NCBI GenBank assembly: GCA_964501035.1
Contig: CAZCRK010000003.1
Coordinates: 1 to 64,000 of the forward strand
Length of the DNA stretch: 64,000 bases
Direction: 5' to 3'
Every line of letters begins with the position of its first letter. Within the stretch, counting starts at the first letter, position 1. Positions 41,654-57,067 of this stretch are shown in pieces. The notes beneath the pieces were generated by a model, which saw only the letters and a list, made by a program, of their open reading frames with translations, was not told the DNA's origin and searched no databases. The position numbers were made by a program, and so were the translations under genes.

Positions 41654-42271
41654 TTAATTCTCCGTATAACCTGTAATTGTTCTTTGAACCCAAATGATTA
41701 AGCCAAGTACAATAAATGCACCAGGAGCTAAAAGCATTAATCCCATATTTTCATATCCAGCAGCATAAAAAGAATCTGGAATGACATTAATCCCCAATAA
41801 TGCTCCACTACCAAACAATTCTCTAATTGCAGAAACTAGAATAAGGATAATTCCGTAACCTAAACTATTTCCTATTCCATCTAACGCAGAATCTTTTACA
41901 GTATTTTGAAGAGCAAATGCTTCAGCACGTCCCATTACAATACAGTTTGTAATTATTAATCCAACAAAAACTGACAGTTGTTTGCTTATATCAAAAAGAA
42001 ATGCTTTTAATACTTGGTCGGCTAATATAACTAAAGTAGCAATTACAGTAAGCATAACAATAATTCTCACCTTTGATGGAATTAAGTTTCGCATGGATGA
42101 AATTATCATATTAGAAAGTGTTAGTACAGATGTTAAAGCAAGAACCATTACAATTGCAGTATCCATTTTTACTGTAACTGCTAAGGCAGAACAAATACCT
42201 AATACTTGCTTGGTAATTGGATTATTATAAATCAGAGGGTCTGCAAAAACTTTCATTTTCTTATTGGTCAT
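41654..42271 (-). CDS. nqrD: Na+-NQR subunit D
   Basis: NNPI..QVLGICSALAVT, GLIITNCIVMGRAEAFA; GGAG SD before ATG 42271. Confidence 0.96.
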   Translation of the reverse strand: MTNKKMKVFADPLIYNNPITKQVLGICSALAVTVKMDTAIVMVLALTSVLTLSNMIISSMRNLIPSKVRIIVMLTVIATLVILADQVLKAFLFDISKQLSVFVGLIITNCIVMGRAEAFALQNTVKDSALDGIGNSLGYGIILILVSAIRELFGSGALLGINVIPDSFYAAGYENMGLMLLAPGAFIVLGLIIWVQRTITGYTEN

Positions 42272-42908
42272 CAGAATCTCCAGCAATATTTTGAGTTAAA
42301 AATTCTTCATAATTTTTCAAGTTAAATAGTAAAAAATCACTTACTCCTTTGGTTGTCAGTGTTGCTCCACTAATTCCATCTACTTCGTGGTCTGTAACTT
42401 CTGATACTTTTCCTTTATTGATTGCAACTGAGACCAAATTCTGATTTACATCAAAGATTTTTTTGCCTACAAATTGTGAGGTAAACCAATCTTTTTCAAT
42501 TTCTCCACCTAAACCTGGGGTTTCCCCATGTTCAAAAAAAGTTATTCCTTTTACAGTATTCATATCTGGATTTAAAGCTAAAAAACCATTTATTGTTGAC
42601 CATAACCCTTTTCCAGAAACAGGAATAATATAACCTTCTAAATTATTATTTGTTTTACACTCATAATAATTAAGCGAATTTTCGTTTACAAATTTTGATT
42701 CTATGCTTTTACTAAAAATTGACACTACTTCATCTTGAGTCATTGTATCATTATACAAATTCACTACCTTTAAGATATTTTTCTTAGTGTCTAACTCTCT
42801 ATTAAAATCCTGTCGAGATTTTAAACTAGTGGATGCAAATGATAATAAAAGTGCAGCAAGTCCAGTTAAAATGATAATAAATCTGTATGTGTATGCATTA
42901 CTGTGCAT
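42261..42908 (-). CDS. nqrC: Na+-NQR subunit C
   Basis: GKGLWS, HGETPGLGGEI, FMN site DGISGATLT; AGGAG SD before ATG 42908. Confidence 0.95.
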   Translation of the reverse strand: MHSNAYTYRFIIILTGLAALLLSFASTSLKSRQDFNRELDTKKNILKVVNLYNDTMTQDEVVSIFSKSIESKFVNENSLNYYECKTNNNLEGYIIPVSGKGLWSTINGFLALNPDMNTVKGITFFEHGETPGLGGEIEKDWFTSQFVGKKIFDVNQNLVSVAINKGKVSEVTDHEVDGISGATLTTKGVSDFLLFNLKNYEEFLTQNIAGDSDDQ

Positions 42909-44055
42909 ATCGTTTTTGTCTCCTTTTAATATGTGCTCGAAGAACATAATAATCAATCATGGGGGAGAATGCGTTCCCTAGCAAAATTGCAAGCATCATT
43001 CCTTCTGGAAATGCTGGATTTACTGTTCGTATTATAACAGCTAGAATCCCAATTAGTACTCCGTAAATCCATCTTCCTGTATTTGTTTGAGATGCAGTTA
43101 CAGGGTCAGTTGCCATGAAGACCATACCAAAAGCAAACCCACCCATAATTAAATGATATTCCCAAGTTAATTGTAATAATGCATTTGAGCTTGCAGAAGC
43201 CATAAAGTTAAAGATATAAGACATCCCTATCATTCCAAGTAGAGTTCCAAACATAATTCGCCAATTTGCAATTTTTGTAATGAGAAGAATTGCTGCTCCG
43301 ACAAGAATTAATAGTGTAGAAGTTTCACCTATAGATCCCGGTATTAAACCATAAAACATATTATGGCAGGTAAAACCAGCATCGTCTAGAATAGGAACTA
43401 TTGAACTTTGAGTGCTTGCTGCAACTGCTAATGGAGTCGCCTTTGACACACCATCAACTGCAACCCAAACTTTGTCACCTGAAATTGCTCCAGGATAAGC
43501 AAAAAATAAAAATGCCCTTGCAATTAATGCGGGATTAAAAATGTTAAATCCTGTTCCACCAAAAATTTCTTTACCAATAACTACTCCAAAAGATGTTGCA
43601 ACTGCAACCATCCATAGTGGGATTGTTGGAGGAACAATGAGCGGAATTAATAATCCTGTAACTAAAAATCCTTCATTTATTTCATGTTTTCTGACAACAG
43701 CAAAAACTACTTCCCAAAACCCTCCAACAGAATAACTTACAATAATGATGGGAAGTACAAGTTGCAATCCTGAAAGAAAATTTTCCATAATACTACGTGA
43801 ACTGTCTTGTTGATCTTGTTGATAACCAACATTGAAAATACCGAATAACAGGACAGGTAACAATGCAATAACTACAATAAACATAGCGCGTTTTAAGTCT
43901 ACAGCATCACGAACATGAGGTCCGTTTTCTGTTTTGTCTTTTGGTGTATATAAAAATGTATCAGCCATTTCGTACACAGGATACAATTTAGCAAACTTTC
44001 CACCTTTAACAAAGTTTGGTTCAATTTTATCAAGAAAATTTCGTATTAATTTCAT
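42898..44055 (-). CDS. nqrB: Na+-NQR subunit B
   Basis: HVRDAVDLKR, GKEIFGGTG, DGVSKATPL, GSIGETS, FMATDPV. Confidence 0.96.
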   Translation of the reverse strand: MKLIRNFLDKIEPNFVKGGKFAKLYPVYEMADTFLYTPKDKTENGPHVRDAVDLKRAMFIVVIALLPVLLFGIFNVGYQQDQQDSSRSIMENFLSGLQLVLPIIIVSYSVGGFWEVVFAVVRKHEINEGFLVTGLLIPLIVPPTIPLWMVAVATSFGVVIGKEIFGGTGFNIFNPALIARAFLFFAYPGAISGDKVWVAVDGVSKATPLAVAASTQSSIVPILDDAGFTCHNMFYGLIPGSIGETSTLLILVGAAILLITKIANWRIMFGTLLGMIGMSYIFNFMASASSNALLQLTWEYHLIMGGFAFGMVFMATDPVTASQTNTGRWIYGVLIGILAVIIRTVNPAFPEGMMLAILLGNAFSPMIDYYVLRAHIKRRQKRYAQ

Positions 44056-44056
44056 A

Positions 44057-45388
44057 TTAACCTTCTGCCTCAATAAATTCTAATCCTTCACGAATGATTT
44101 CAGAAACTTCCATTTTAGAAGTGTCAGCAAACGAACAAAGAGCAAAATCTTCTGAATCGCACTCATAAATACCTAAATTTTCCATTTCTTCAATATCTCT
44201 CGATAAAATTGCTTTCATTAGAAAAGTAGGTAAAACATCCATAGGAACCATTTGTTCAATATTACCAAATGGAATAATTGCTCTCTCACTACCATTTTTT
44301 AAAGTATTTAATGTGTATTCTTTCTTCTTAAATATTTTACTCAAGAATGTGTTCGTAATTGAATACTTACTTAATCCAGGACTCAACCAGCCTAGTAAAT
44401 ATCTATCATCTGGATCAGGTATTACTGATATAATTTCGTCAAAATATCCCATTGAATTTGCTGGATTTGAAATGACACCGCTTAAAATATCTCCTGAAAT
44501 TATTCGAGTATTTGTGTTTAACATTTGACTGATGATATTCGATATAGGAGTACCTCTCGTAATCTCAAAATACTGAGGATTTTGGACACCGTTTCCACCA
44601 ACAGAAATAACTTTTCTATTGTTTAACTTACCAGTAGAAAACAACTTACCAATATCAGCAACATCTTGAGGTGCAACGTACCAAACAATATCATCTTTAT
44701 TTTTAATCGGATCAATATGATGAATATGTACACCAACATTTCCTGACGGATGAGGTCCTATAAAATTGGACTTTATTACACCATTTAAATCTGCAAACTC
44801 ATTTGGATTACATATAAAATGAATTTCACCATCAGTCAATGTATTTAACACATCAATTCCAGTCTGTAAATTCTGCAAACGATCTTGCAATGCAAGAGAT
44901 TGATCAAGTGCAAATGGAGCTGTAGGTGATGCTGAAATAAAAATTGACTTAGGTTTTGTACTTGGTTTTGCAATTTTTGAAAAGGGTCTTTGTCGAATAT
45001 ATGTCCATGCTCCAGATTCTAACAATAAAGATTTTGAATATTCAGAATCTAAAACAGTATTTTCTTTAAATGATTTAAATTCAACATATGCTTCGTCATT
45101 TACTTCAATCTCTAATGAAACAATTGATCTTCGTTCACCAAAAGTAATTTTAGACAATGTTCCAGATACAGGAGATGTAAAAATAATCTCAGAATTATTT
45201 TTATCTAAGAATAGTGGTGTTCCAATAGATATTGAGTCACCTTCTTTTATTAATAATTTAGGTTTGATTCCATTTATAGCATTTGGTTGAATAAAAATGG
45301 ATGCAGGTATTTCTACGGTTGATATTGATTTGGCTGGTTTCCCAGCAATTTTAATATCATGTCCTTTTTTTAATTTATATGTAGCCAT
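44057..45388 (-). CDS. nqrA: Na+-NQR subunit A
   Basis: KKGHDIKIAGKP, SPVSG, GPHPSGNVG, EDFALCSF. Confidence 0.95.
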   Translation of the reverse strand: MATYKLKKGHDIKIAGKPAKSISTVEIPASIFIQPNAINGIKPKLLIKEGDSISIGTPLFLDKNNSEIIFTSPVSGTLSKITFGERRSIVSLEIEVNDEAYVEFKSFKENTVLDSEYSKSLLLESGAWTYIRQRPFSKIAKPSTKPKSIFISASPTAPFALDQSLALQDRLQNLQTGIDVLNTLTDGEIHFICNPNEFADLNGVIKSNFIGPHPSGNVGVHIHHIDPIKNKDDIVWYVAPQDVADIGKLFSTGKLNNRKVISVGGNGVQNPQYFEITRGTPISNIISQMLNTNTRIISGDILSGVISNPANSMGYFDEIISVIPDPDDRYLLGWLSPGLSKYSITNTFLSKIFKKKEYTLNTLKNGSERAIIPFGNIEQMVPMDVLPTFLMKAILSRDIEEMENLGIYECDSEDFALCSFADTSKMEVSEIIREGLEFIEAEG

Positions 45389-45392
45389 AGGC

Positions 45393-45860
45393 TTATTTTT
45401 TTAACCTCTTTTTACGATGCTTACTGCGCAACTCACCTTCTTTAAATCTTCTTTTTTCATCTTCACTTTCAGGAACAATTGAAGGAATTATCTTTGGTTT
45501 TTTATCATCCCCCAAGGATACAAATGTTAAATAGGCTGAGGCAGTATGATTAATCTCGCCACTGATGGGACATTCAGATTCAATTCTAACACCTATCTCT
45601 AATGATGTGCGACCTGTGTAATTTACAGAAGATTTTAAAATCATAATATCTCCTTTTTTTGCAGGTGCCAAAAAATCTAACCTATCAACTGAAGCTGTTA
45701 CCACAGGTGTACGCGTGTGTTTGTAAGCTGACATTGCAGCACAAACATCCATTAAATGCATTACTCGACCACCTAAAACATTTCCTAGTATATTGGTATC
45801 ATTTGGCAGCACTAATTCATGCATTATAACTTGACTATTTTTTACGGTTTTACTTCCCAC
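45393..45860 (-). CDS. Hotdog-fold acyl-CoA thioesterase (YciA-like)
   Basis: LPNDTNILGNVLGG, VTASVD, GRTSLEIG, AYLTFV. Confidence 0.92.
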   Translation of the reverse strand: MGSKTVKNSQVIMHELVLPNDTNILGNVLGGRVMHLMDVCAAMSAYKHTRTPVVTASVDRLDFLAPAKKGDIMILKSSVNYTGRTSLEIGVRIESECPISGEINHTASAYLTFVSLGDDKKPKIIPSIVPESEDEKRRFKEGELRSKHRKKRLKK

Positions 45861-45861
45861 C

Positions 45862-47319
45862 TTATTTCCAGAGTATTAAAGTATTTTGTATAAACTCATA
45901 CAATGGCGACCAATAGAAGTAAAATGCAATACTTTGGATAGCAAAAATAATAATTAACCATTTTAGAACTGGATTAGCCTTGAGTTTAGAAGTTGAATTA
46001 CTATTTTCAAAGTACATACTTTTCACAACTCTAAAATAATAGTATAGCGCAACTACACTATTTAAAATTCCAACAACTGCAAGCCAATAATATTTGCTTT
46101 CTGAAAATAAAGCAGAGAATAAATACACTTTTCCAATAAATCCGGATGTTGGTGGTAATCCTGCTAAAGAAACAAGGACCAATACCATAAAAGCACCAAG
46201 AACTGGGTTTCTCTTTCCTAAACCATTCCATGAATCTACTTCTACAGAATCTAATTTATTGGAGGCAAATATTGTAAAGAAAAACGCACCTAAATTCATA
46301 AAGGCATACATAACTAAATAAAATACAATTCCTACCATAGCATCTTTTGAAAGTACTGAGAATGCCATTAACATAAAACCAACATGTGAAATACTTGAAT
46401 ATGCTAACATGCGCTTAACATTACTTTGTTGTAGAGCCAGTAAATTACCTATTGTCATTGTTAAAGCAGAAAGTACTGCAATTAATAATGGCCAATCAAA
46501 CCCAACAATTGGAACAGAACCTAGAACACCATCTACTGTAAACAATGTTATAAAAACACGAATAAATAAAGCAAATCCAGCAACCTTAGGAGCTACTGAT
46601 AAAAATGCAGTAATTGTGGTTGGTGACCCTTCATACACATCTGGTGTCCAATAATGAAACGGAACCATGGATATTTTGTATCCAAAACCTACTATAATCA
46701 TGATAAATGAAATATATAGTGTTGTAGGGTTCGAACAGCTTAAAAGAGCAGAATGAACAACTGATATATCTGTAGAACCTGATAATCCATATAGCCAACT
46801 AATTCCAAACAACATAACGCCAGAAGCGAATGACCCAAAAATGACATATTTTAATGCAGATTCATTTGACTTTGCATCATTTTTCAGAATACCTGCTAAA
46901 ATATATGATGGAATACTTACAAGTTCAATAGCAAGATAAATCATGAGCAAGTTTGTCGAAGAAGTCATTAAGAATAATCCTAGGGTAACAGCAATAAGAA
47001 GCACTAAGTATTCAGATTGATTCGAATCTTCAAGTTCATTACTATAATTTGAAATTAAAATAATAGCAAATGATGTGAGTAAAACTATCCATTTGAACAT
47101 ATGAGAAAATGGATCCACAACAATCATATCAAAGAATATGGAAGTAATACTGCCCATTGAAACAAAGAGAGTATACCCAACCACTAGTAAGCCTATCAAT
47201 GATATGGATCGTATCCATTTTTTGCAATTTGGAATTATATCCAACAAAATAACTACTAACATTGTAGTTAATAAAATCAACTCAGGAATAAAGAACGGAA
47301 GACTTAGTAGATTATTCAC
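45862..47319 (-). CDS. nuoN: Complex I subunit N
   Basis: ESALKY, KISMVPFHYWTPDVYEG, KRMLAYSSISH. Confidence 0.96.
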   Translation of the reverse strand: MNNLLSLPFFIPELILLTTMLVVILLDIIPNCKKWIRSISLIGLLVVGYTLFVSMGSITSIFFDMIVVDPFSHMFKWIVLLTSFAIILISNYSNELEDSNQSEYLVLLIAVTLGLFLMTSSTNLLMIYLAIELVSIPSYILAGILKNDAKSNESALKYVIFGSFASGVMLFGISWLYGLSGSTDISVVHSALLSCSNPTTLYISFIMIIVGFGYKISMVPFHYWTPDVYEGSPTTITAFLSVAPKVAGFALFIRVFITLFTVDGVLGSVPIVGFDWPLLIAVLSALTMTIGNLLALQQSNVKRMLAYSSISHVGFMLMAFSVLSKDAMVGIVFYLVMYAFMNLGAFFFTIFASNKLDSVEVDSWNGLGKRNPVLGAFMVLVLVSLAGLPPTSGFIGKVYLFSALFSESKYYWLAVVGILNSVVALYYYFRVVKSMYFENSNSTSKLKANPVLKWLIIIFAIQSIAFYFYWSPLYEFIQNTLILWK

Positions 47320-47328
47320 AATAAAACC

Positions 47329-48906
47329 TTAAAATACACCATGTATCGTTTGAATTATTGCATCCATTGCAGGGCTAATTAAATCAATCAAAGGGGCTGG
47401 ATAAACTCCTAAGAATAAAACAATTATTACTAGAGGAACAATTGCAAACAATTCTCGCCTGTTTATATCGGAATATTCTGAATACTTAGGATTGAGTTTT
47501 CCCAAAAACACTCGTTGATATGCCCGTAGGAAGTAAATTGCATTTAGCAAAATACCTAACGTTCCAATAATTGTAATAGTTCTAAATGCACTAAATCCAC
47601 CAATAAAACATAACGCTTCACTTACAAAACCTGATAAAGCTGGTAATCCCAGTCCAGCAAAAAATGCTAAAGCAACTAATGCAGTAAACCGTGGCATTTG
47701 TGCACCTAACCCACCAAATCCAGGCTGTCCCCTCAATTCTTCAACTTCATAATCATCTGGATACACGATCCATCTATGATGTGCCTTGTCGTAAATAACT
47801 CCAACCAACATAAACAACATGGCTGTGATTGTTCCGTGATTAAACATTTGCATTACTGCACCATTCATTCCCGCTTGTGCACCTGCTTCATTTACACTAA
47901 CTACAGCTGCCATCCCGAGTAATACATAACCCATATGGCTCACAGAAGAATATGCGACCATTTTCTTTAAATCAATCTGAGCAATTGCGTTAACAGCTCC
48001 CCAAATAATATTTATTACACCCAATACTGCCAATATTAATGAAAAGTTTATTACTTCACCCGGTAACAAGGGATAACTAATTCGCAATAGACCGTATGTA
48101 CCCATTTTTAACAATACACCAGCTAAAATGACTGATACTGCTGTAGGAGCTTCTACGTGTGCAAGAGGTAACCAAGTATGAAATGGGAAAATTGGAACTT
48201 TAATTGCAAACCCTATAAATAATGCAATCCAAATAACATATTTCATGCTAAAACCCCATAAAACAGCATCAATGTTACGTGCTTCAGAAATTAGCGTAAT
48301 TAAATTGAAAGTATGTGGTTCAGTATAAAAATATAGAGCCAACATCCCAAGTAACATGAAAACTGATCCAAAGAGAGTATAAAGGAAAAATTTGATAGCA
48401 GCATAATGTCGTTTAGGTCCACCCCACATACCAATTAAAAAGTACATTGGTAGCAGCATGACTTCCCAAAAAATATAAAACAAAAAGAAATCCAATGAGA
48501 TAAATACACCCATCATTCCTGCATCAAGAAGTAAAAATAAAGCAAAATAACCCAATTGATGTTTTTCAATCTTCCAACTTATGATTATTGATAAGAATGA
48601 TAAGAAAGCAGTTAAAAGAACCATAGGCATACTCAAACCATCAACACCAATAAAATATTGAATATTAAAATGCTTAATCCAGTCAATTTGAACTGTAAAT
48701 GGAGAATCCATTACCGCCAAGGCTGGATTAAAATGTAAATACAACCAAATAGCTAGAATAAATTGCAAGGTTGTAGTAACTAGGGCTACCCATTTATATA
48801 TTGGAGCACCATTTTTACCTTTTAACCATGCAATAGGTAGCATAATAATTGCTCCTAGTACTGGTAAAAATATTAACAAAGTGAGTATAAGTGAGTTCAT
48901 ATCCAT
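47329..48906 (-). CDS. nuoM: Complex I subunit M
   Basis: FWEVMLLPMYFLI, PFHTWLPLAHVEAP, LLKMGTYG, YSSVSHMG. Confidence 0.96.
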   Translation of the reverse strand: MDMNSLILTLLIFLPVLGAIIMLPIAWLKGKNGAPIYKWVALVTTTLQFILAIWLYLHFNPALAVMDSPFTVQIDWIKHFNIQYFIGVDGLSMPMVLLTAFLSFLSIIISWKIEKHQLGYFALFLLLDAGMMGVFISLDFFLFYIFWEVMLLPMYFLIGMWGGPKRHYAAIKFFLYTLFGSVFMLLGMLALYFYTEPHTFNLITLISEARNIDAVLWGFSMKYVIWIALFIGFAIKVPIFPFHTWLPLAHVEAPTAVSVILAGVLLKMGTYGLLRISYPLLPGEVINFSLILAVLGVINIIWGAVNAIAQIDLKKMVAYSSVSHMGYVLLGMAAVVSVNEAGAQAGMNGAVMQMFNHGTITAMLFMLVGVIYDKAHHRWIVYPDDYEVEELRGQPGFGGLGAQMPRFTALVALAFFAGLGLPALSGFVSEALCFIGGFSAFRTITIIGTLGILLNAIYFLRAYQRVFLGKLNPKYSEYSDINRRELFAIVPLVIIVLFLGVYPAPLIDLISPAMDAIIQTIHGVF

Positions 48907-48909
48907 CCC

Positions 48910-50961
48910 TTATATTTGATGAATTATTAATAAAATAAATAAAATTCCAATAACACCACCAATAAGGTAGTTTTGAATCACACCAGATTGTGTGCTTTTT
49001 AACTTTGTACTAAAAAAGGTTGCAATTCGCCCAAAGCCATCCACGACATATTGGTCAAGCCAGTTATAGTCAGCTTTTCCAGATTGATGCGAAAACTTTA
49101 ACGTAATCCAACCCCAAGCATCAATAAATTTTTGGTCATATAAATCCCAATCAATATGTGAAACCAACTTAGATAATTTTAGAAATGGAACATATAACAC
49201 AGCATTATATATTTCATCGATGTAAAACTTGTTAAAAGAGAGATTATAAAGTTTAAAAGTATTTAATTTATTTGCCACATTTTCAGGATTGATTTTTCTA
49301 AAATAATAAAATAAAGCTGACAATAGTATTCCAAGAAATGCTACGATTAATGATATAATCATTGCTGAGCTGTGGGCATGGTGAATTCCTTCTTCAACCT
49401 GATGTAAATCTAAGCCAGCAACATGATCAGCAGCAGATACAGAATCCGTAAACCAACCATGACTATTTAGAGGATTTATATGTGGTATTGTAAAAATAAA
49501 AGCAAAACTCAAAGCAGCTAAAATAACTAGTGGTGCTGTCATGGCAACTGGAGATTCTTTTATATGGGTAAATATTTTAGGAAACTTAGGATTTCCATAG
49601 AATGTCATAAAAATTAACCTAAACATATAGAAAGCTGTAATGATAGCTGCACCGAATCCAAAAATAGGTAGAATAATTGTCCAACCATGATGTGCATGGT
49701 AGTATGCAATTGTCCCAGCCAGAACGGCATCTTTAGATAGAAAACCTGAAAATAGTGGAATACCTGAAATTGCTAAAGTAGCAATTAACATAGTAACAAA
49801 TGTAATTGGCATTTTAGATTTCAAACCACCCATATTATTCATATCTTGTGGGTCAGTATGATGGTCCTTTTCTTTATGCAGGGCATGGTGCATAGCGTGT
49901 ATAACAGAGCCACTGGCTAAAAATAAACACGCTTTAAACATGGCATGCGTTGTTAGATGAAAAAATCCTGCCTGAAATGCTCCAACACCCAATGCCATTA
50001 TCATATAACCAAGCTGACTCACAGTAGAATAGGCCAGAACTCGTTTTATATCATTTTGTGTAATTGCTATAATCGAAGCCATTATTGCTGTTATTCCACC
50101 AATGACAGCTACAAATTCTAAGGCTGATGGAGTTAAAAATGGAAAAATTCTAACCGTCATATACACTCCAGCTGCTACCATTGTCGCTGCATGAATTAAA
50201 GCACTAACTGGTGTTGGACCTTCCATAGCATCTGGTAACCAAATATGTAATGGAAATTGTGCTGATTTGCCAATGGCACCCATAAACACCAAAATTCCTG
50301 CAACTGTTAGTAATGTCATATCTAAATTCGAAGCATGAATAATAGATTCGGTGATACCATTAATATTAAAAGTACCTAACATGAAAAATAAAATCATGAT
50401 ACCAATAAACATTCCAATATCACCAACACGATTAGTTAAAAAAGCTTTTTTACTCGCATCAGCAGCACTATTTTTTTCAAACCAAAATCCAATTAATAAA
50501 TATGAACTAAGACCAACCAATTCCCAAAAAATATACATCATTATTAAACTATCAGCAAGAACGATTCCATTCATTGAAAATGTAAAAATTCCCAAGTAAG
50601 CAAAATATCGGCTGTATCTAGGGTCACCTTTCATATATTCTGTAGAATATAAATGAACTAAGAATGAAATCAATGCAACAACTAGCAACATGACTGCAGA
50701 AATGTTATCAATCAAGATACCTAATTCAACTGTCAAACTTCCAGTAGAGAACCAAACCTTACTAGTTTCTAGAATAGGACCACCTAATGAGAAAAAGATA
50801 TTTGCAAAAAAGCTTATTGCAATACCTAGCATTGAACTTATTAAAATTAATGAAACATAATGAGATTTTCTACCTAGTTTTTTGCCAAAGAAAATTAAAA
50901 CACAAAATGAAGTGAGAGGTAAAATTAATAATAACAATGCTAATACCAATGATGAATCCAT
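48910..50961 (-). CDS. nuoL: Complex I subunit L
   Basis: WELVGLSSYLLIGFW, KSAQFPLHIWLPDAMEGPTPVSALIHAATMV. Confidence 0.97.
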   Translation of the reverse strand: MDSSLVLALLLLILPLTSFCVLIFFGKKLGRKSHYVSLILISSMLGIAISFFANIFFSLGGPILETSKVWFSTGSLTVELGILIDNISAVMLLVVALISFLVHLYSTEYMKGDPRYSRYFAYLGIFTFSMNGIVLADSLIMMYIFWELVGLSSYLLIGFWFEKNSAADASKKAFLTNRVGDIGMFIGIMILFFMLGTFNINGITESIIHASNLDMTLLTVAGILVFMGAIGKSAQFPLHIWLPDAMEGPTPVSALIHAATMVAAGVYMTVRIFPFLTPSALEFVAVIGGITAIMASIIAITQNDIKRVLAYSTVSQLGYMIMALGVGAFQAGFFHLTTHAMFKACLFLASGSVIHAMHHALHKEKDHHTDPQDMNNMGGLKSKMPITFVTMLIATLAISGIPLFSGFLSKDAVLAGTIAYYHAHHGWTIILPIFGFGAAIITAFYMFRLIFMTFYGNPKFPKIFTHIKESPVAMTAPLVILAALSFAFIFTIPHINPLNSHGWFTDSVSAADHVAGLDLHQVEEGIHHAHSSAMIISLIVAFLGILLSALFYYFRKINPENVANKLNTFKLYNLSFNKFYIDEIYNAVLYVPFLKLSKLVSHIDWDLYDQKFIDAWGWITLKFSHQSGKADYNWLDQYVVDGFGRIATFFSTKLKSTQSGVIQNYLIGGVIGILFILLIIHQI

Positions 50962-50963
50962 AA

Positions 50964-51275
50964 CTAACCTTTCATCCTATTGGCTTTATCCACTTCAACA
51001 CTACCAACATGTTTAAACAAGTTTATTACTATAGCAAGTGCGACAGCAGCTTCAGCTGCAGCCAGGACAATTACAAATATGGTAAACACATGTCCATCTA
51101 ATGAAACAATACCATTAAACCTATTAAATGCAATGAAATTTAAATTTGCAGAGTTTAAGATAAGCTCTATCCCCATTAAAATTGCGATTGCATTTTTTCT
51201 TGTCATAATTCCATAAAGTCCTATGGAAAACAAAATACTAGAAATAATTAAATATGATTGTAAAGAATCAATCAT
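50964..51275 (-). CDS. nuoK: Complex I subunit K
   Basis: MGIELILNSANLN, AAAEAAVALA. Confidence 0.96.
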   Translation of the reverse strand: MIDSLQSYLIISSILFSIGLYGIMTRKNAIAILMGIELILNSANLNFIAFNRFNGIVSLDGHVFTIFVIVLAAAEAAVALAIVINLFKHVGSVEVDKANRMKG

Positions 51276-51757
51276 TTTTTCCTCGATAATAATGCAGCAC
51301 CTATCAGTGCAGATAAGAGTAATACTGATACAATTTCAAAAGGTAATAAATACTTATTTAATAACATAATCCCAATCGTTCTGACCGTTTCATTCGGTTC
51401 TATCTTGTTTCCTTCAAGCCAATTAGTATTTAGTATTACAAACAATTGTACTACAAAAAACAAACCTACAACGATGAATGACAAAATTTTATTATTACTT
51501 TGTGAAGAAATTTCTGGTCCTTCAATGCGATTTGTTAACATCACTCCAAAAATAATTAAAACCAATATACCACCCACATAGATCATAACTTGAGTACCCG
51601 CAATAAAGTCTGCAAACAAGAACACATATAAACCTGCAATTCCAAACAAGGTAAACAACAATGCTACAGCAGAATGTACAAGATTAGATGAAGTAACCAC
51701 CCAAATTGCAGACATAACCACCAAAGACATTATTGTTAGTAAAATAATATCTGTCAT
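51272..51757 (-). CDS. nuoJ: Complex I subunit J (start 51757 or 51763)
   Basis: QVMIYVGGILVLIIFGVML, YLLPFE. Confidence 0.94.
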   Translation of the reverse strand: MTDIILLTIMSLVVMSAIWVVTSSNLVHSAVALLFTLFGIAGLYVFLFADFIAGTQVMIYVGGILVLIIFGVMLTNRIEGPEISSQSNNKILSFIVVGLFFVVQLFVILNTNWLEGNKIEPNETVRTIGIMLLNKYLLPFEIVSVLLLSALIGAALLSRKK

Positions 51758-53106
51758 TTGCATTCACTTTCTATAGATTTGAGCAATTCCTCAGTATTGC
51801 TGTCCAGATTACTTGATTTTTCCAAAGTTGTTCGAATATTTGTTAATATTTCTTTTGAAGTGAGTCCTGATTTTTTTCCAGAAATATAGGTTTTCTTAGC
51901 AGTTCCTCGAACCATTTTATCTTCAATTTCATTCAATTTTTTTATATCAAATAATGGTTCGACTACATTAGAATTTTCTTTAGTTATTGAAGATGCAATA
52001 CTAGCATTTAATTTTTCAAGTAAACTAGACACTTCTTCAGTTAACATATCTGATTCTAACAGGGTATTTTGAACATGTTCTAAAATTTTTGGGATTTCAG
52101 AATGAAGTTTTTTACCAGCTAAAAATGCTTTTTTAGATAACCCACGAACCATTTTGTCACTTAAGTCATTAAAAGACTTAACAGTCACTTCATCTACATT
52201 GACTTTAGGAGTTTTATCTACAGATGCGATTGGTTCAATATTCATTTCTTTTATTTGATTAATAATATTTTCTAAATCATCTGTGTATTTTTCGGCATCA
52301 ACTAATGCTACCCTTACTGCATCTGCAGTTTCTTTTGCATTTAATTTTGACTTAAACGAGGCAATAAATGCTTTTTTAGCTATAGACCGCACAACTCTAT
52401 CTTCGATTAGATTAATCACAGAAAAGTCCGGTTTCGATATATTTTGAAGGGGATCAATTTTAGCTTTTTTAACAATCTTTTTCTCAGGTTCTGGATAATT
52501 ATCGATAGGCAGTCCTGCTTTGCGTTGCTCATCTATCCAGTTTCGTTTTGCTAAATATGCTTCACCACCTGCTTTTTTAATTTCTTCATCTGAAATAGTT
52601 GTGAAATCAGTAATTAACTCATTTCTATTATATTTTGTATATTCATAATCAATATCTTTTTTATGCTGATTAGGTCCACCAACCATATAAATACAATCTT
52701 CAGGACAAGGAAATGTGCATAGGTTACAGTACATACATTCAGACATGTCAATAGAATGACGAACAACTAACATTTTCTTTTTTGTGTCATTAGAGGTGAT
52801 TCCGCAATCATAATCACTACCTTTAGGTGGCTTTACCGTTTCAATTTTGATACAATCAACTGGACATGCTCTCTCGCATTTCAAACAACCAATACAATCA
52901 TCAATATCTACATGTAATTTTGTGCGAATTGAATTGTAATCAGAGAATTCAAACCCTATTTTACGTTCTGGAAGTGGCCATTTCTCATTTGGATATTGCA
53001 ATGTAGCGACTAAATCTTTTTTATTATTAAAATGTTGCATAGTGAGCTTTAATCCAGTAGCAAAGGATTTTAAACTTGAAATAATATTGTTAAAATATTC
53101 AGTCAT
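51754..53106 (-). CDS. nuoI: Complex I subunit I (2x[4Fe-4S]) with a long C-terminal extension of three ~60-aa repeats
   Basis: TLQYP, CIGCLKCERACP, CMYCNLCTFPCP; 450 aa, far longer than a typical NuoI; ATGA overlap with nuoH. Confidence 0.92.
   Translation of the reverse strand: MTEYFNNIISSLKSFATGLKLTMQHFNNKKDLVATLQYPNEKWPLPERKIGFEFSDYNSIRTKLHVDIDDCIGCLKCERACPVDCIKIETVKPPKGSDYDCGITSNDTKKKMLVVRHSIDMSECMYCNLCTFPCPEDCIYMVGGPNQHKKDIDYEYTKYNRNELITDFTTISDEEIKKAGGEAYLAKRNWIDEQRKAGLPIDNYPEPEKKIVKKAKIDPLQNISKPDFSVINLIEDRVVRSIAKKAFIASFKSKLNAKETADAVRVALVDAEKYTDDLENIINQIKEMNIEPIASVDKTPKVNVDEVTVKSFNDLSDKMVRGLSKKAFLAGKKLHSEIPKILEHVQNTLLESDMLTEEVSSLLEKLNASIASSITKENSNVVEPLFDIKKLNEIEDKMVRGTAKKTYISGKKSGLTSKEILTNIRTTLEKSSNLDSNTEELLKSIESECK
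51769..52428 (-). repeat. Three diverged protein-level repeats in the NuoI tail (about 52249-52428, 52006-52185, 51769-51948)
   Basis: NLIEDRVVRSIAKKAF / NDLSDKMVRGLSKKAF / NEIEDKMVRGTAKKTY, spaced 81 and 79 codons. Confidence 0.88.
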
Positions 53107-54206
53107 TGAATCACAAGCTCCCAAATACTAACAAAAAAGAGATTCGCTAATGCAAATGGGATGAGCACTTTCCAACATAAATACATTAACTGATCAACAC
53201 GTAAACGTGGAAATGTCCAACGAAACCACATCATGATAAAAATTAATATAATAACTTTAAACAACAACCAGAATACACCCCAAGCAACGCCATCAAATAG
53301 CAACCAAGATTCAGGAATACCAGATATTAATGTAAACGGTGATAACCACCCACCAAGAAACACAACAGCAGTTATAATGCTGACTATGAGCATGTTTGCA
53401 TATTCACTTAAGAAAAATAAGGCCCAGCGAAATCCTGAGTATTCAGTCATCCACCCTGCAACTAATTCTGATTCAGATTCTGGAATATCAAATGGAGTTC
53501 TATTGGTCTCAGCTACAACAGAAATGAAATAAATAAAAAATGCAACAAATGCAAATGGACTATGCAAAATAAACCATCTATGACTTGCTTGCCAAGCAAC
53601 GATATCATCGATTTGCAAACTACCAACTACTAACACAGCTAATAATAACGTGATTCCGATTGGTATTTCATAACTAACAATTTGAGCAGCTGCACGCATT
53701 GCACCATATAATGACCATTTATTATTAGAACCCCAACCTGCTAAGATGATGCCAATGACACCAACAGAGCTCATAGCAAGGACATAAAATATTCCAATAT
53801 TAAATTTTGATACTATCAAATTTTCTGAAAACGGAACGCCAATAAAGGTTAAAAATGCACCAATAAAAATGATAAATGGAGCTAACACCATGATTTTTTT
53901 ATCAGCATCTTTTGGGATAATATCTTCTTTTGCAAGTAGCTTAACAGCATCGGCAATCGTTTGGCCTATACCACCCCAAAACTTTTTACCACCCTTAAAA
54001 CCAAAAATTCCAACTTCCATCGGGCCGAGCCTATCCTGCATAAATGCAGAGACTTTTCTCTCAAAGTAAACAGCAATTAATGCATTTACTGCCATAATAA
54101 GAAATACTAGAACTCCTGGAATTAAAAATACTGCAATAAACAACAATGAAAAATTCATATCTAATGAAGAGAGACTTTCAAGTAATGAATCAACAACTGG
54201 CATCAT
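53103..54206 (-). CDS. nuoH: Complex I subunit H
   Basis: ERKVSAFMQDRLGP, ADAVKLLAKE, AETNRTPFDIPESESELVAG, PRLRVDQL. Confidence 0.97.
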   Translation of the reverse strand: MMPVVDSLLESLSSLDMNFSLLFIAVFLIPGVLVFLIMAVNALIAVYFERKVSAFMQDRLGPMEVGIFGFKGGKKFWGGIGQTIADAVKLLAKEDIIPKDADKKIMVLAPFIIFIGAFLTFIGVPFSENLIVSKFNIGIFYVLAMSSVGVIGIILAGWGSNNKWSLYGAMRAAAQIVSYEIPIGITLLLAVLVVGSLQIDDIVAWQASHRWFILHSPFAFVAFFIYFISVVAETNRTPFDIPESESELVAGWMTEYSGFRWALFFLSEYANMLIVSIITAVVFLGGWLSPFTLISGIPESWLLFDGVAWGVFWLLFKVIILIFIMMWFRWTFPRLRVDQLMYLCWKVLIPFALANLFFVSIWELVIQ

Positions 54207-55665
54207 CTGTCAATTTCTCCTAGCACAATGTCTAAGCTACCTAAAATTGTTATTAAATCTGACATCATCCACCCTTCAGCTATTTCACTGATTACAGATA
54301 AATTCGAAAATGCTGGAGATCGCATTTTTAAGCGTTGAGGAATATTTTTTCCATCACTGATTATGTAAAAACCCAAATCACCACGAGCTGTTTCATACCG
54401 AGAATAGACAGATCCAGCTTTTGGTCTTATTTTCTTTGGCTTGGCTTCGTGTATATCTCCTTCTGGTATTTGATCGAGTGCTTGAGAAATAATTTTAATA
54501 CTTTCTTTCATCTCGAGAACACGAACATAATACCTGTCCCAAGAATCGCCCAATGTACCCATTTGGCCATCACCAAGAATCACATTAAAATCAAATTTAT
54601 CATATATAGAATATGCTTCATTTTTACGCAAGTCCCAGTCAACTCCACTTGCACGTAAGTTCGGCCCAGTTACCCCATAATTGATAGCAACCTCAGCAGG
54701 CATCACTCCCACATCTGCAGTACGTTCAATAAATATTTTATTTGTGGTAAGTAAATCATTACATTCGTCAATTTGTGGTTCAAAATAAGTTAAAAATTCT
54801 CGTGTCTGTGTAATAAACTTTTCGGGGAGGTCATGTGAAACACATCCAGGCCAAATATAATTATATAATAATCGAGCACCGCAGAGTGTTTCAAATAAGT
54901 CTAAAATTCTTTCTCTGTCACGAACTGTCCATGTAAATGGAGTTATTGCACCTACGTCAAGACCAAATGTACCGATTGCAACAAGGTGACTCGCAATTCG
55001 TTGTAACTCAGCAACAATAACCCGTATATCACTCCCACATCTGCAGTACGTTCAATAAATATTTTATTTGTGGTAAGTAAATCATTACATTCGTCAATTT
55101 GTGGTTCAAAATAAGTTAAAAATTCTCGTGTCTGTGTAATAAACTTTTCGGGGAGGTCATGTGAAACACATCCAGGCCAAATATAATTATATAATAATCG
55201 AGCACCGCAGAGTGTTTCAAATAAGTCTAAAATTCTTTCTCTGTCACGAACTGTCCATGTAAATGGAGTTATTGCACCTACGTCAAGACCAAATGTCCCG
55301 ATTGCAACAAGGTGGCTCGCAATTCGTTGTAACTCAGCAACAATAACCCGAATATATTCTACACGTTCAGGAATTTCTATTCCCATCAATTTTTCAACAG
55401 CCATAGAATATGCATGGTTCATATGCATTGAAGCTAAATAATCACACCTATCTGTAAAAGGAACGATTTGTTCATAGGGTAGATTTTCACAATGTTTTTC
55501 AAAACTTCGATGCAAGTAACCAATGATGGGTTCAATTTTATTAACAATTTCACCATCTGTATGAATTTTAAGACGTAATACACCGTGTGTGCTAGGATGC
55601 TGAGGCCCCATGTTTAAAACCATTTCTTCAGCGTGAATTATACTTTTGTCCTGATTCTTATCCAT
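54203..55665 (-). CDS. nuoD: Complex I subunit D, frameshifted as written by a 326-bp internal tandem duplication (intact 378 aa if one copy is removed)
   Basis: [20 protein letters not shown], ...GPNLRASG...[13 protein letters not shown] split over ORFs 54952..55674 and 54203..54712. Confidence 0.9.
54702..55353. repeat. Direct tandem duplication, 2 x 326 bp (54702-55027 and 55028-55353)
   Basis: Copies identical except 54971/55297, 54989/55315 and 55025/55351. Confidence 0.97.
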
Positions 55666-56150
55666 TACTTCCAATACGTCTTATCTTTTACAATGGTGAT
55701 TCCATTGTACTTTTCTGCAACTTGATAGTTTTTGCGCAGGGGATGACCTTCCCAGTCATCAGGTAATAAAATTCGTTTTAAATCTGGGTGATTAGAAAAC
55801 TTAACACCCATTAAATCGTACGCTTCACGTTCATGCCAATCTGCAGTTCTCCAAATATTTGCTACAGATGGTATTTCGACATTATCACTGACCTCAATCC
55901 GAACCTCACAATAATGTAATTTAGAATATGAATGAAAGTTGTAAGCAACGCCATAGGTCTGATTATCCAAAGTATCATAAGAACTTATGCATAATAAGTT
56001 ATCAAATGTTAGATCTGGATCGTTTTTTAATACTTCTGCAGTGTGCAACCAATGCTCAGCATTCACTTTTACAATTTGCGTATTTTCAAGAACTTCAATT
56101 TCAGTTTTGGTTCGAAGTTTGATTACTTCAATAATTTGAGAAAATTCCAT
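55665..56150 (-). CDS. nuoC: Complex I subunit C
   Basis: [43 protein letters not shown]. Confidence 0.96.
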
Positions 56151-56648
56151 CTAAGCGTTTTTCTTTCGTAATGGAGTTTCTTTTTTTATTTTTTCTTGCA
56201 ATTCTAAAAGCCCATGCAATAAAGATTCTGGACGCGGCGGGCACCCAGGCACATACACATCTACTGGTATGATTTCATCAACCCCTTTTACTACATGATA
56301 GCCATGTTGCCAATAAGGTCCTCCACTATTTGCACAACTACCCATGGATATCACATACTTAGGGTCCGACATTTGCTCGTAAAGACGTACAACACGTTCA
56401 GCCATTTTTAAGGAAACCGTACCTGCCACAATCATAACATCTGCTTGTCTGGGAGTTGCTCGAGGCATTGCACCAAATCGTTCTAAATCGTGTCTTGGAG
56501 CTGCTGCAGACATCATTTCAATCGCACAGCATGCTAAACCAAATTGGAAATACCAAGGCGAACTTGAACGAGCCCAATTGATAAGTGTATCAAATTTCTC
56601 AACAATTACATTATCTTGTTTAAACTGATTGGTAAGAGATAACTCCAT
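56151..56648 (-). CDS. nuoB: Complex I subunit B
   Basis: [32 protein letters not shown]. Confidence 0.97.
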
Positions 56649-57067
56649 TAACCCTCTTCTTTCTTGGATAAATCAGCATATCGGCCGTGTGCATATTTAA
56701 CATTCATTTTCACCCAATCTAAATCACCCTTTACCCACACATATGCAAACCCCAGCACAAGTATAAGGACGAAAATTGCCATTTCAACAAATGCAAGCCA
56801 TCCAATTTCTTGAAAAACAACTGCCCATGGAAATAAAAATACCACTTCTACATCAAAGATAATAAAGATCAAAGCAATTATGTAGAATCGGATATTGAAT
56901 TTAACCCATGCAGATCCCTCGGGAACTTCCCCACATTCATATGAAGACAGTTTTTCACCACCTTTGTTGTTTTTTGGAGATATGAGATATTGTAAGAATA
57001 ATGGTACTATGACCATTACAAGGGCTAGAGCCGTAAAAATGATTATTGGAGCAAAGTCTCTATACAC
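56648..57067 (-). CDS. nuoA: Complex I subunit A
   Basis: [25 protein letters not shown]. Confidence 0.96.

Follow-up and report, generated by a model that had tools for sequence, protein, structure and literature searches.

A repeated four-helix domain on the NuoI subunit of an 11-subunit complex I, a putative tethered module for electron donor capture

The electron donor of 11-subunit complex I, the form of the enzyme that lacks the NADH-oxidizing N-module (NuoE, NuoF, and NuoG), is an open question in the passages of Willemin et al. (2024, PMC11238625) and of Moparthi and Hagerhall (2011, PMC3144371) that deal with it. The same passages of the latter paper state that no partner protein was found, propose the Q-module as a docking platform, and describe an N-terminal extension of NuoC in the 11-subunit enzymes of the Bacillus cereus group and Geobacillus that may contact partners. 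For most Marinimicrobia, passages of Getz et al. (2018, PMC6143742) describe a noncanonical NADH dehydrogenase without the NADH module and suggest flavodoxin as the donor. In Escherichia coli, residues 139 to 180 of NuoI contact NuoG, NuoF, NuoE, NuoB, and NuoD according to Table 3 of Kolata and Efremov (2021, PMC8357420). We analyzed a 64,000-nucleotide stretch of DNA (contig CAZCRK010000003.1 of assembly GCA_964501035.1, positions 1 to 64,000; hereafter the window) that carries an 11-subunit nuo operon, in which the NuoI subunit of 450 amino acids (aa) continues beyond its iron-sulfur core into a tail with three repeat units. We propose, with a probability of about 0.45, that this tail is a tethered module at the electron-input face of the enzyme and captures an electron donor, the binding being putative.

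The tail occupies the same subunit position as the E. coli NuoI C-terminal extension, and by analogy with that structure it would emerge at the interface with the N-module, that is, at the electron-input face. The E. coli extension is about 40 residues long, ordered, extended, and domain-less and glues NuoEFG to the Q-module, whereas the tail encoded in the window has 270 residues, is made of folded beads on disordered linkers, and belongs to an enzyme with no N-module. A preliminary description of the window had treated NuoI as the site of electron entry and docking, which accords with the E. coli contacts, where the NuoI C-terminus is the place at which the N-module docks (PMC8357420). Like the NuoC extension of Bacillaceae, as portrayed in the passages cited above, the tail is a lineage-specific addition to a subunit of the Q-module in a complex I that lacks the N-module, and Marinimicrobia-like sister families even carry a short form of the motif on the NuoC N-terminus. 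Compared by description only, the present module differs in that it sits on the NuoI C-terminus as a folded unit of 60 aa in one to five copies.

Two further kinds of enzyme without NuoE and NuoF invite comparison. Weerakoon and Olson are said to have described, in 2008, a flavodoxin-dependent complex I in Campylobacter jejuni, and cyanobacterial NDH-1 is ferredoxin dependent and has docking subunits of the NdhS type. In these systems, an acidic one-electron carrier docks near NuoI, as would be the case here, but the carrier is free and the accessory subunits are separate proteins, whereas the candidate docking element of the window, or the flavodoxin of some relatives, is part of the NuoI polypeptide. 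The flavodoxin donor of the Campylobacter type was not found in the window's genome but was found in relatives with a flavodoxin fused to NuoI. In the E2 subunit of 2-oxoacid dehydrogenases, Ala/Pro-rich swinging-arm linkers connect lipoyl domains and small basic helical peripheral-subunit-binding domains, the latter of which recruit partner enzymes. The tail shares with E2 the layout of small folded units on flexible linkers, and in two relatives (L039 of genome G332 and L045 of G300) the linker ahead of the single NuoI repeat is a PVAAA/PAAAAA run of the (PVAAA)n kind; however, there was no Pfam match to E3_binding and no fold match, so that the likeness is a design analogy only. The system is accessory equipment, in a new form, on a known enzyme. 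Searches of the literature outside subscription journals and supplements returned no mention of the NuoI tail, of a NuoI-flavodoxin fusion, or of the motif.

The layout given in the preliminary description, a 450-aa NuoI with a two-cluster core, a Lys/Pro-rich stretch, and three units whose motif starts are 81 and 79 codons apart, was confirmed by the open reading frame (ORF) and by repeat statistics (Table 1; motifs at residues 238, 319, and 398 when counted from an upstream TTG). Local alignment of unit against unit gave scores of 74, 93, and 108, compared to shuffle means of 26 to 28 (standard deviation, about 5.3), corresponding to z values of 8.5, 13.1, and 15.0; for no pair did any of 500 shuffles attain the score observed. 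All three units were recognized by a profile derived from 47 relatives' units (bit scores in Table 1), and no other ORF among the 14,246 six-frame ORFs of the window's genome fell below its inclusion threshold, leaving NuoI alone. Between units, nucleotide identity is 0.44 to 0.48 and amino acid identity 0.21 to 0.34, as expected from the earlier remark that the DNA had diverged and the protein motif had been kept; third-codon-position identity is 0.30 to 0.43, compared to 0.36 expected from composition. Judged by these identities, the three units are ancient and not recent duplicates.

Segment identities and ratios of nonsynonymous to synonymous substitution (dN/dS) were determined for the window's NuoI against that of a same-genus relative, which also has three units. 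The dN/dS values in Table 1 are rough, given nearly saturated dS and the shortness of the linkers; at the codon level, they show purifying selection acting on the units and drift of the linkers. Across the 47 units, which come from five families, D11, R15, K19, and K20 (unit numbering) are invariant, and N7, G16, A18, R27, L43, and K48 are strongly conserved, G16, A18, and R27 nearly invariantly so. Hence a largely functionless, tolerated expansion acting as a spacer or entropic bristle, or a tether to the NQR encoded next to the operon, is very improbable: neither the selection on the units against drifting linkers, nor the residues kept across families, nor the age of the units suits it, although the tail is dispensable in some lineages. 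As for the tether, which the preliminary description had suggested, nuo and nqr are neighbors on one strand, but beyond this nothing was observed in its favor and nothing connects the domain with NQR subunits.

A single unit modeled with the 47-unit alignment reached a predicted local distance difference test score (pLDDT) of 92.4, with helices at residues 3 to 8, 12 to 27, 32 to 45, and 51 to 61, that is, a short helix followed by three others. In the full-length AlphaFold2 (AF2) model, the units have pLDDT values of 80 to 92 and the linkers values below 50, with a predicted template modeling score (pTM) of 0.25, and together these values give a beads-on-a-string picture. Within the connector that precedes the units, a helix of moderate confidence (residues 182 to 197) is followed by disorder (residues 206 to 225, pLDDT <50). 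The Fe-S core was modeled poorly (residues 21 to 167, pLDDT <50), and the full-length model is therefore uninformative as to where the units lie relative to the clusters.

Residues K12, R15, G16, K19, K20, K26, and R27 share one 140-degree arc of helix 2, and M13, A18, A21, F22, A24, and A25 occupy the opposite arc. This basic stripe is presumably exposed, and the conserved Lys and Arg residues around a Gly would form the contact surface for a partner. The domain had been called basic, which holds for helix 2 but not for the whole unit, the three units of the window having net charges of −1, 0, and +2. Over 74 extracted units, the mean charge is +3.8 for the first 30 residues and −3.0 for the final 32 or so; each unit thus combines a basic helix with an acidic half and is dipolar. 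A continuous Lys/Arg stripe might also suit a nonprotein polyanion, such as acidic membrane lipids, nucleic acid, or polyphosphate, and the short form of the motif described below resembles Lys/Ala-rich amphipathic segments and is found on a membrane-anchored protein. We nevertheless regard polyanion binding as improbable, since the hydrophobic face of helix 2 builds the four-helix unit in the model and should not insert in a membrane, the second half of the unit is acidic, and no genomic link to nucleic acid functions was seen.

The preliminary description did not recognize the repeat as a named family, and our searches agree: without a Pfam, PDB-sequence, or clear fold match, it is an undescribed domain. 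The best Pfam match of the tail had an E value of 0.034, short of the cut-off, and NCBIfam gave nothing meaningful. When the 47 units were scanned singly against Pfam, no family was matched by more than two of them. A profile search of PDB sequences retrieved designed helical repeats only, Foldseek of the unit model against the PDB had a best E value of 2.9, and an exhaustive VIA-align structure search reached a best Z score of 5.9, to de novo designs and generic helical segments, a value within background for small helical bundles. ESM Atlas look-alikes of the tail included no usable match. By these comparisons, the repeat is a new domain family. Two further likenesses were also pursued. That to the C-terminal domain of protochlorophyllide reductase subunit B (PCP_red) was dropped, as no Pfam match appeared at E values up to 1 to 10; a PCP_red-like structure was absent from the listed Foldseek and VIA-align matches as well, an absence that is not proof. 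E. coli RsxC (RnfC), likewise an Fe-S subunit of a membrane redox complex, has a C-terminal series of repeated helical segments that are basic, but no sequence relationship is detectable, and this candidate was rejected: the RsxC tail scored no better than 200 of its own shuffles, with −17.6 bits against the short-motif profile (shuffle mean, −5.0) and −1.2 bits against the long-repeat profile (shuffle mean, −4.0).

Within the window's family, genus g9 has a NuoI core that continues into flavodoxin in place of the repeats. One such NuoI (genome G336, L037:5989-7974) has 662 aa and two Flavodoxin_1 domains (E = 1.3e-43), and another (G326, L038:7876-9033) has at least one flavodoxin domain before the contig ends. 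When long proteins were searched with the first flavodoxin domain, 11 were retrieved, 10 of which are natural NuoI-flavodoxin fusions of 421 to 736 aa (P0177 to P0186). Five consist of the core and one flavodoxin domain and two of the core and two such domains; in two more, the second flavodoxin domain is followed by one terminal repeat, and the remaining one has a single flavodoxin domain, a long linker, and one terminal repeat. The unit retained in such flavodoxin-plus-repeat forms is the C-terminal one. Two metagenomic fragments also pass from the end of a flavodoxin through a linker into a repeat. A tree of NuoI cores (46 rows, 187 columns) was computed by a careful search, with the omission of two duplicate loci, of P0180 and P0188, and of L004, L016, L021, and L023, the last four being truncated or ambiguous NuoIs. 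On this tree, the fusions are nested among three-repeat NuoIs at two spots (supports, 100/96 and 96/89), and a single origin was not rejected (approximately unbiased test, P = 0.062, for a group named after the tree was viewed). As their domain order shows, flavodoxin domains replace the repeats at the same position in these relatives. The fused flavodoxin domains have net charges of −21 and −25.

The idea of an electron-input role thus has strong circumstantial backing in the flavodoxin fused at the position of the tail, but flavodoxin is not a general partner, because it was not found in the window's genome or in 21 others from groups whose sampled NuoI has three to five repeats (genera g1, g2, g3, and g5 and family f3). 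In the window's genome, PF00258 had 0 matches, and 0.14 was the lowest E value in a tblastn search with the fused domains. The same genome encodes three POR_N 2-oxoacid:ferredoxin oxidoreductases, a 112-aa ferredoxin with a net charge of −21 and a pI of 4.1, a 59-aa 2x[4Fe-4S] ferredoxin, and a PorD-like protein of 93 aa. Since no Rnf-type or NuoF-type protein was found, the 11-subunit complex would be the obvious route for ferredoxin reoxidation. Across the 74 genomes of the order, flavodoxin occurs in 28 and the 112-aa ferredoxin type in 52, the latter including 26 of the 28 genomes of genera whose sampled NuoI has three to five units. None of the 13 genomes of g1, g2, g3, and g5 yielded a flavodoxin, nor did any of the 9 genomes of f3, a family that also takes in g15 (no units) and g22 (no such NuoI found). 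In genus g7, with one unit, all 6 genomes have flavodoxin and none of the 6 the ferredoxin type; in g15, both of whose genomes are 98% complete, neither carrier was found (0 of 2 each). This carrier pattern is descriptive only, as the genomes are related to one another.

A unit with a basic stripe, repeated on flexible linkers, together with acidic carriers and the replacement by flavodoxin, fits a tethered module that captures a donor. In the proposed mechanism, the small four-helix domains of the tail, strung along flexible linkers, would hang from the point of NuoI where the N-module sits in canonical complex I. It would capture a low-potential donor system and keep the donor close to the exposed terminal [4Fe-4S] cluster. 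In the window's genome, the donor may be the acidic ferredoxin reduced by 2-oxoacid:ferredoxin oxidoreductases, so that the enzyme would act as a ferredoxin:quinone oxidoreductase and the neighboring NQR would handle NADH. All of this presupposes that the repeat domain binds a donor at all.

The repeat is rare. A profile search of 1.84 billion representative proteins (E values up to 1e-3) gave 160 matches. Among the 148 newly listed proteins, 10 have both Fe-S motifs, 2 have one, and 6 start inside the NuoI core; most of the others are short repeat-only pieces, and five very long proteins match part of the profile only. Homologue names from the sources point to Marinimicrobia (also called Neomarinimicrobiota or Fidelibacterota). 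We surveyed 401 genomes of the window's phylum. A NuoI core of the window's subtype occurs in 257 of them and the tail in 50, 46 of these in the window's order (46/68), distributed over its families as 23/37 (f1), 3/3 (f2), 6/9 (f3), 3/3 (f4), and 11/16 (f5); the window's own genome adds one to these 46. NuoI open frames run to about 400 to 590 aa in the order, compared to about 190 to 250 aa in the other families of the class. Outside the order, the tail was found in 3 genomes only. Two of these, both of family f10, have contigs (G257:C62, containing L021, and G309:C113) that carry an order-type tailed NuoI, and G309 holds an additional short NuoI; bin contamination (2 to 4% for these bins) or transfer may explain them.

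Units were counted in 39 NuoIs from fetched loci, which represent 37 distinct genes, two loci having been fetched twice. Three units is the commonest state (24 NuoIs), followed by two (5 NuoIs, with a partial second unit in one) and one (3 NuoIs); one NuoI has four units, and the two counted with five are one gene of 586 aa fetched twice. The four NuoIs with no unit are those of the outgroup G175 (187 aa) and of G039 (216 aa) and two flavodoxin forms. On the core tree, one-unit forms adjoin three-unit forms in two places, and the zero-unit G039 lies inside a clade with three to five units; thus, copy number has changed repeatedly. This history bears on the possibility that the tail is a cap, an analogue of the ordered NuoI extension of E. 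coli, which would stabilize or shield the surface and the Fe-S cluster that the absence of the N-module leaves exposed. The E. coli extension buries large peripheral-arm interfaces, to judge from the cited contact data (PMC8357420), and the host lineage lives in the oxic ocean in the account of Getz et al. (PMC6143742), where oxygen protection of the cluster would be plausible. A cap is nonetheless a poor candidate in our estimation, since copy number varies between 0 and 5 and has been reduced repeatedly and independently on the tree, long stretches of disordered, fast-evolving sequence make up the linkers (with the low full-length pTM), and flavodoxin domains can take the place of units.

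Other bearers of the long repeat are few. A repeat ORF of G376:C38, just upstream of nuoJ, represents the C-terminus of a NuoI truncated by the contig end, and one of G325:C18 lies at a contig start. In genus g3, G221:C82 encodes a 233-aa protein (P0135, L043:2534-3235) with a Cys-rich N-terminal part, which matched no Pfam family, and one long repeat at the C-terminus. It is the only clear non-NuoI bearer of the long repeat observed; by eye, its neighbors resemble queF, a sugar kinase gene, and a gene for a DUF805-type membrane protein. The metagenomic protein P0040 (463 aa) is Ala-rich and has five units and no Fe-S motif, its first repeat beginning at residue 10; it may represent a free-standing protein or a gene model cut short by the edge of its contig.

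That the enzyme of the window is an N-module-less 11-subunit complex is upheld by the operon, which has no nuoE, nuoF, or nuoG between nuoD and nuoH. Moreover, PF01512 (NuoF/RnfC type) and PF01257 (NuoE) had 0 matches in the window's genome, which is 95.7% complete (NuoG was outside this search), while as controls they matched in 9 and 8, respectively, of 14 named genomes. nuoD adjoins nuoH in all 13 relatives' loci that hold both genes (nuoABCDHIJKLMN), including those of G175, G039, and G134 with short NuoIs. The preliminary description had linked the tail to the loss of nuoEFG, and this was not borne out, the same operon occurring with NuoIs of 187 to 216 aa in sister families and in some members of the order; the tail is therefore a later addition, made within a clade in which the 11-subunit enzyme was already present, and not a correlate of N-module loss. 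Close relatives do have short NuoIs to the extent that unit number varies from 0 to 5 within the order, yet the same-genus relative keeps three.

Weaker profile matches led to a short motif of about 39 residues, the last 28 of which align with positions 2 to 29 of the long unit. The two forms are related with an hhalign probability of 97.6% (E = 2.7e-12), and their profiles match each other reciprocally. In sister families with a short NuoI, one or two copies of the short motif stand at the N-terminus of NuoC (loci L053 to L063, e.g., G186:C1:1227800-1227910; proteins P0193 to P0200), and in 11 of the 12 best loci of the short-motif search over the 401 genomes, the motif-bearing ORF is NuoC. 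At one locus, three matches lie in an adjacent frame upstream of the NuoC frame. Two NuoIs of the short type (P0163 and P0188) have two copies at the C-terminus. The finding of a homologous core on NuoC where NuoI is short implies that the module goes with the peripheral arm and not with NuoI as such. SRPBCC proteins (P0116, P0190, and P0192) bear three or four copies at the C-terminus, and their hydrophobic N-terminal stretch was interpreted as a transmembrane anchor. The short motif was found in 155 of the 401 genomes, typically with three to six matches per sister-family genome (NuoC plus SRPBCC); strong matches occur in the short-NuoI families f8 (44/44), f9 (12/13), f10 (57/66), f18 (10/10), and f14 (2/2). 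Within the window's order, the only matches of the short-motif profile are weak ones to the NuoI repeats; in the window's own genome, none was found at a threshold of 1e-4.

The occurrence of the short motif on two unrelated proteins per sister-family genome, NuoC and a transmembrane SRPBCC protein, raises the alternative of a general protein-protein adaptor, either homotypic or for a shared nonredox partner, which would recruit other motif-bearing proteins or further copies of the complex to the peripheral arm, as when a supercomplex or scaffold is formed. The long repeat on the Cys-rich protein of g3, the dipolar unit, which would suit head-to-tail association, and the repeat retained beside a fused flavodoxin are also in keeping with it. 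However, the window's genome has no second motif-bearing partner, NuoI being the sole such ORF of the 14,246, and a single unit is predicted to fold confidently alone. We consider an adaptor of this kind rather unlikely.

Several observations nevertheless weigh against donor capture as the function of the tail. Three of the 10 fusions retain a repeat in the same chain, which is odd if the repeat only captures a carrier. Genus g6, with three units, has both the ferredoxin type and flavodoxin, and the carrier correlations depend on few related lineages. Whole units are near neutral, with an average net charge of +0.8 (net charge and pI were calculated for the 73 of 74 extracted units without an X). 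The SRPBCC proteins with the short motif are membrane anchored and have no evident redox role. Furthermore, both modules are missing from families f6, f11, f12, f17, and f19, which share the NuoI type (the single operon examined in these families, that of G175 in f17, reads nuoABCDHIJKLMN), and g15, within the window's order, has no tail; the module is therefore dispensable. Finally, PF01512 proteins are present in 15 of the 16 genomes of f5, a tailed family, and are encoded elsewhere in the genome (in G134, at 1.43 Mb, with nuoI at 1.89 Mb). The tail can thus be found together with NuoF/RnfC-type proteins.

If the tail does capture a donor, the reading might be extended, with more doubt than confidence, to a modular electron-input antenna on Marinimicrobia complex I. 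A basic-helix module on the NuoC N-terminus, or a multiplied four-helix bead on the NuoI C-terminus, would capture acidic ferredoxin or flavodoxin or their reductases, and it would be replaced by a tethered flavodoxin under some conditions, perhaps iron scarcity. Were this antenna reading true, the fusions would identify the long-sought class of physiological donor of 11-subunit complex I. In any case, the NuoI-flavodoxin fusions are a clue of the Rosetta-stone type and make the donor question testable with defined constructs; they address the question of the donor to 11-subunit enzymes outside photosynthetic organisms, which is open in the passages of PMC3144371 and PMC11238625 cited above. 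The motif shared by NuoI, NuoC, and SRPBCC proteins points to a putative common interaction surface in the energy metabolism of a marine lineage that ranks among the most abundant uncultured ones.

Table 1. Positions of nuoI, the segments of its product, and the nuo operon in the window
Feature	Position	Strand	Evidence or properties
nuoI coding sequence, 450 aa plus stop codon (51754-51756)	51754..53106	minus	homologue starts, P0002, TIGR01971
NuoI core, residues 1-178, two CxxCxxCxxxCP [4Fe-4S] motifs	52573..53106	minus	regex; Fer4 matches at residues 68-148
Lys/Pro-rich connector, residues 179-225	52432..52572	minus	charge +3, pI 9.4; dN/dS 0.26
Repeat unit 1, residues 226-287	52246..52431	minus	72.9 bits; pLDDT 81-89; dN/dS 0.11
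Linker 1, residues 288-306, disordered, fast-evolving	52189..52245	minus	residues 292-305 pLDDT <50; 21% identity; dN/dS 0.79
Repeat unit 2, residues 307-368	52003..52188	minus	73.0 bits; pLDDT 81-91; dN/dS 0.10
Linker 2, residues 369-384, disordered	51955..52002	minus	residues 374-382 pLDDT <50; 31% identity; dN/dS 1.8 over 16 codons
Repeat unit 3, residues 385-450, C-terminal	51757..51954	minus	78.0 bits; dN/dS 0.35
nuoA-B-C-D-H-I-J-K-L-M-N operon, without nuoE, nuoF, or nuoG between nuoD and nuoH	45862..57067	minus	NCBIfam naming

The minus-strand ORF of nuoI spans 51754..53124, and its TTG start would give 456 aa. Homologues begin (MSEYF...) at the ATG at 53106, which yields the NuoI of 450 aa, 100% identical to the database protein P0002 (450 aa); judged from these starts, translation probably does not begin at the upstream TTG (53124). 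The two CxxCxxCxxxCP motifs, which bind clusters N6a and N6b in NuoI/TYKY, lie within residues 70 to 150 or so, as located by regular expression and by Fer4-family Pfam matches. TIGR01971 (NuoI) matched with an E value of 1.8e-18 and 66.3 bits, under its curated cut-off of 113.05, and the window's NuoI is of a subtype with an insertion between the two cluster motifs. The gene sits between nuoH and nuoJ (NCBIfam names), a synteny shared by the relatives' loci that hold both neighbors.

Within the operon, nuoD (minus strand) contains a tandem direct duplication at 54702-55327, 54702-55001 and 55028-55327 being 99% identical over 300 nucleotides. The copies are 326 nucleotides apart from start to start, and because 326 is not a multiple of three, nuoD is split into the ORFs 54952-55674 and 54203-54712. 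The second of these is open upstream to about 55009, and nuoD of the relatives is a single continuous frame. The duplication could be an assembly artifact or a real disruption. In the region 42261-47319, the operon is directly followed, on the same strand, by a gene for a YciA-like acyl coenzyme A thioesterase (45393-45860) and then by nqrA, nqrB, and nqrC, again by NCBIfam names; two respiratory quinone reductases are therefore encoded contiguously.

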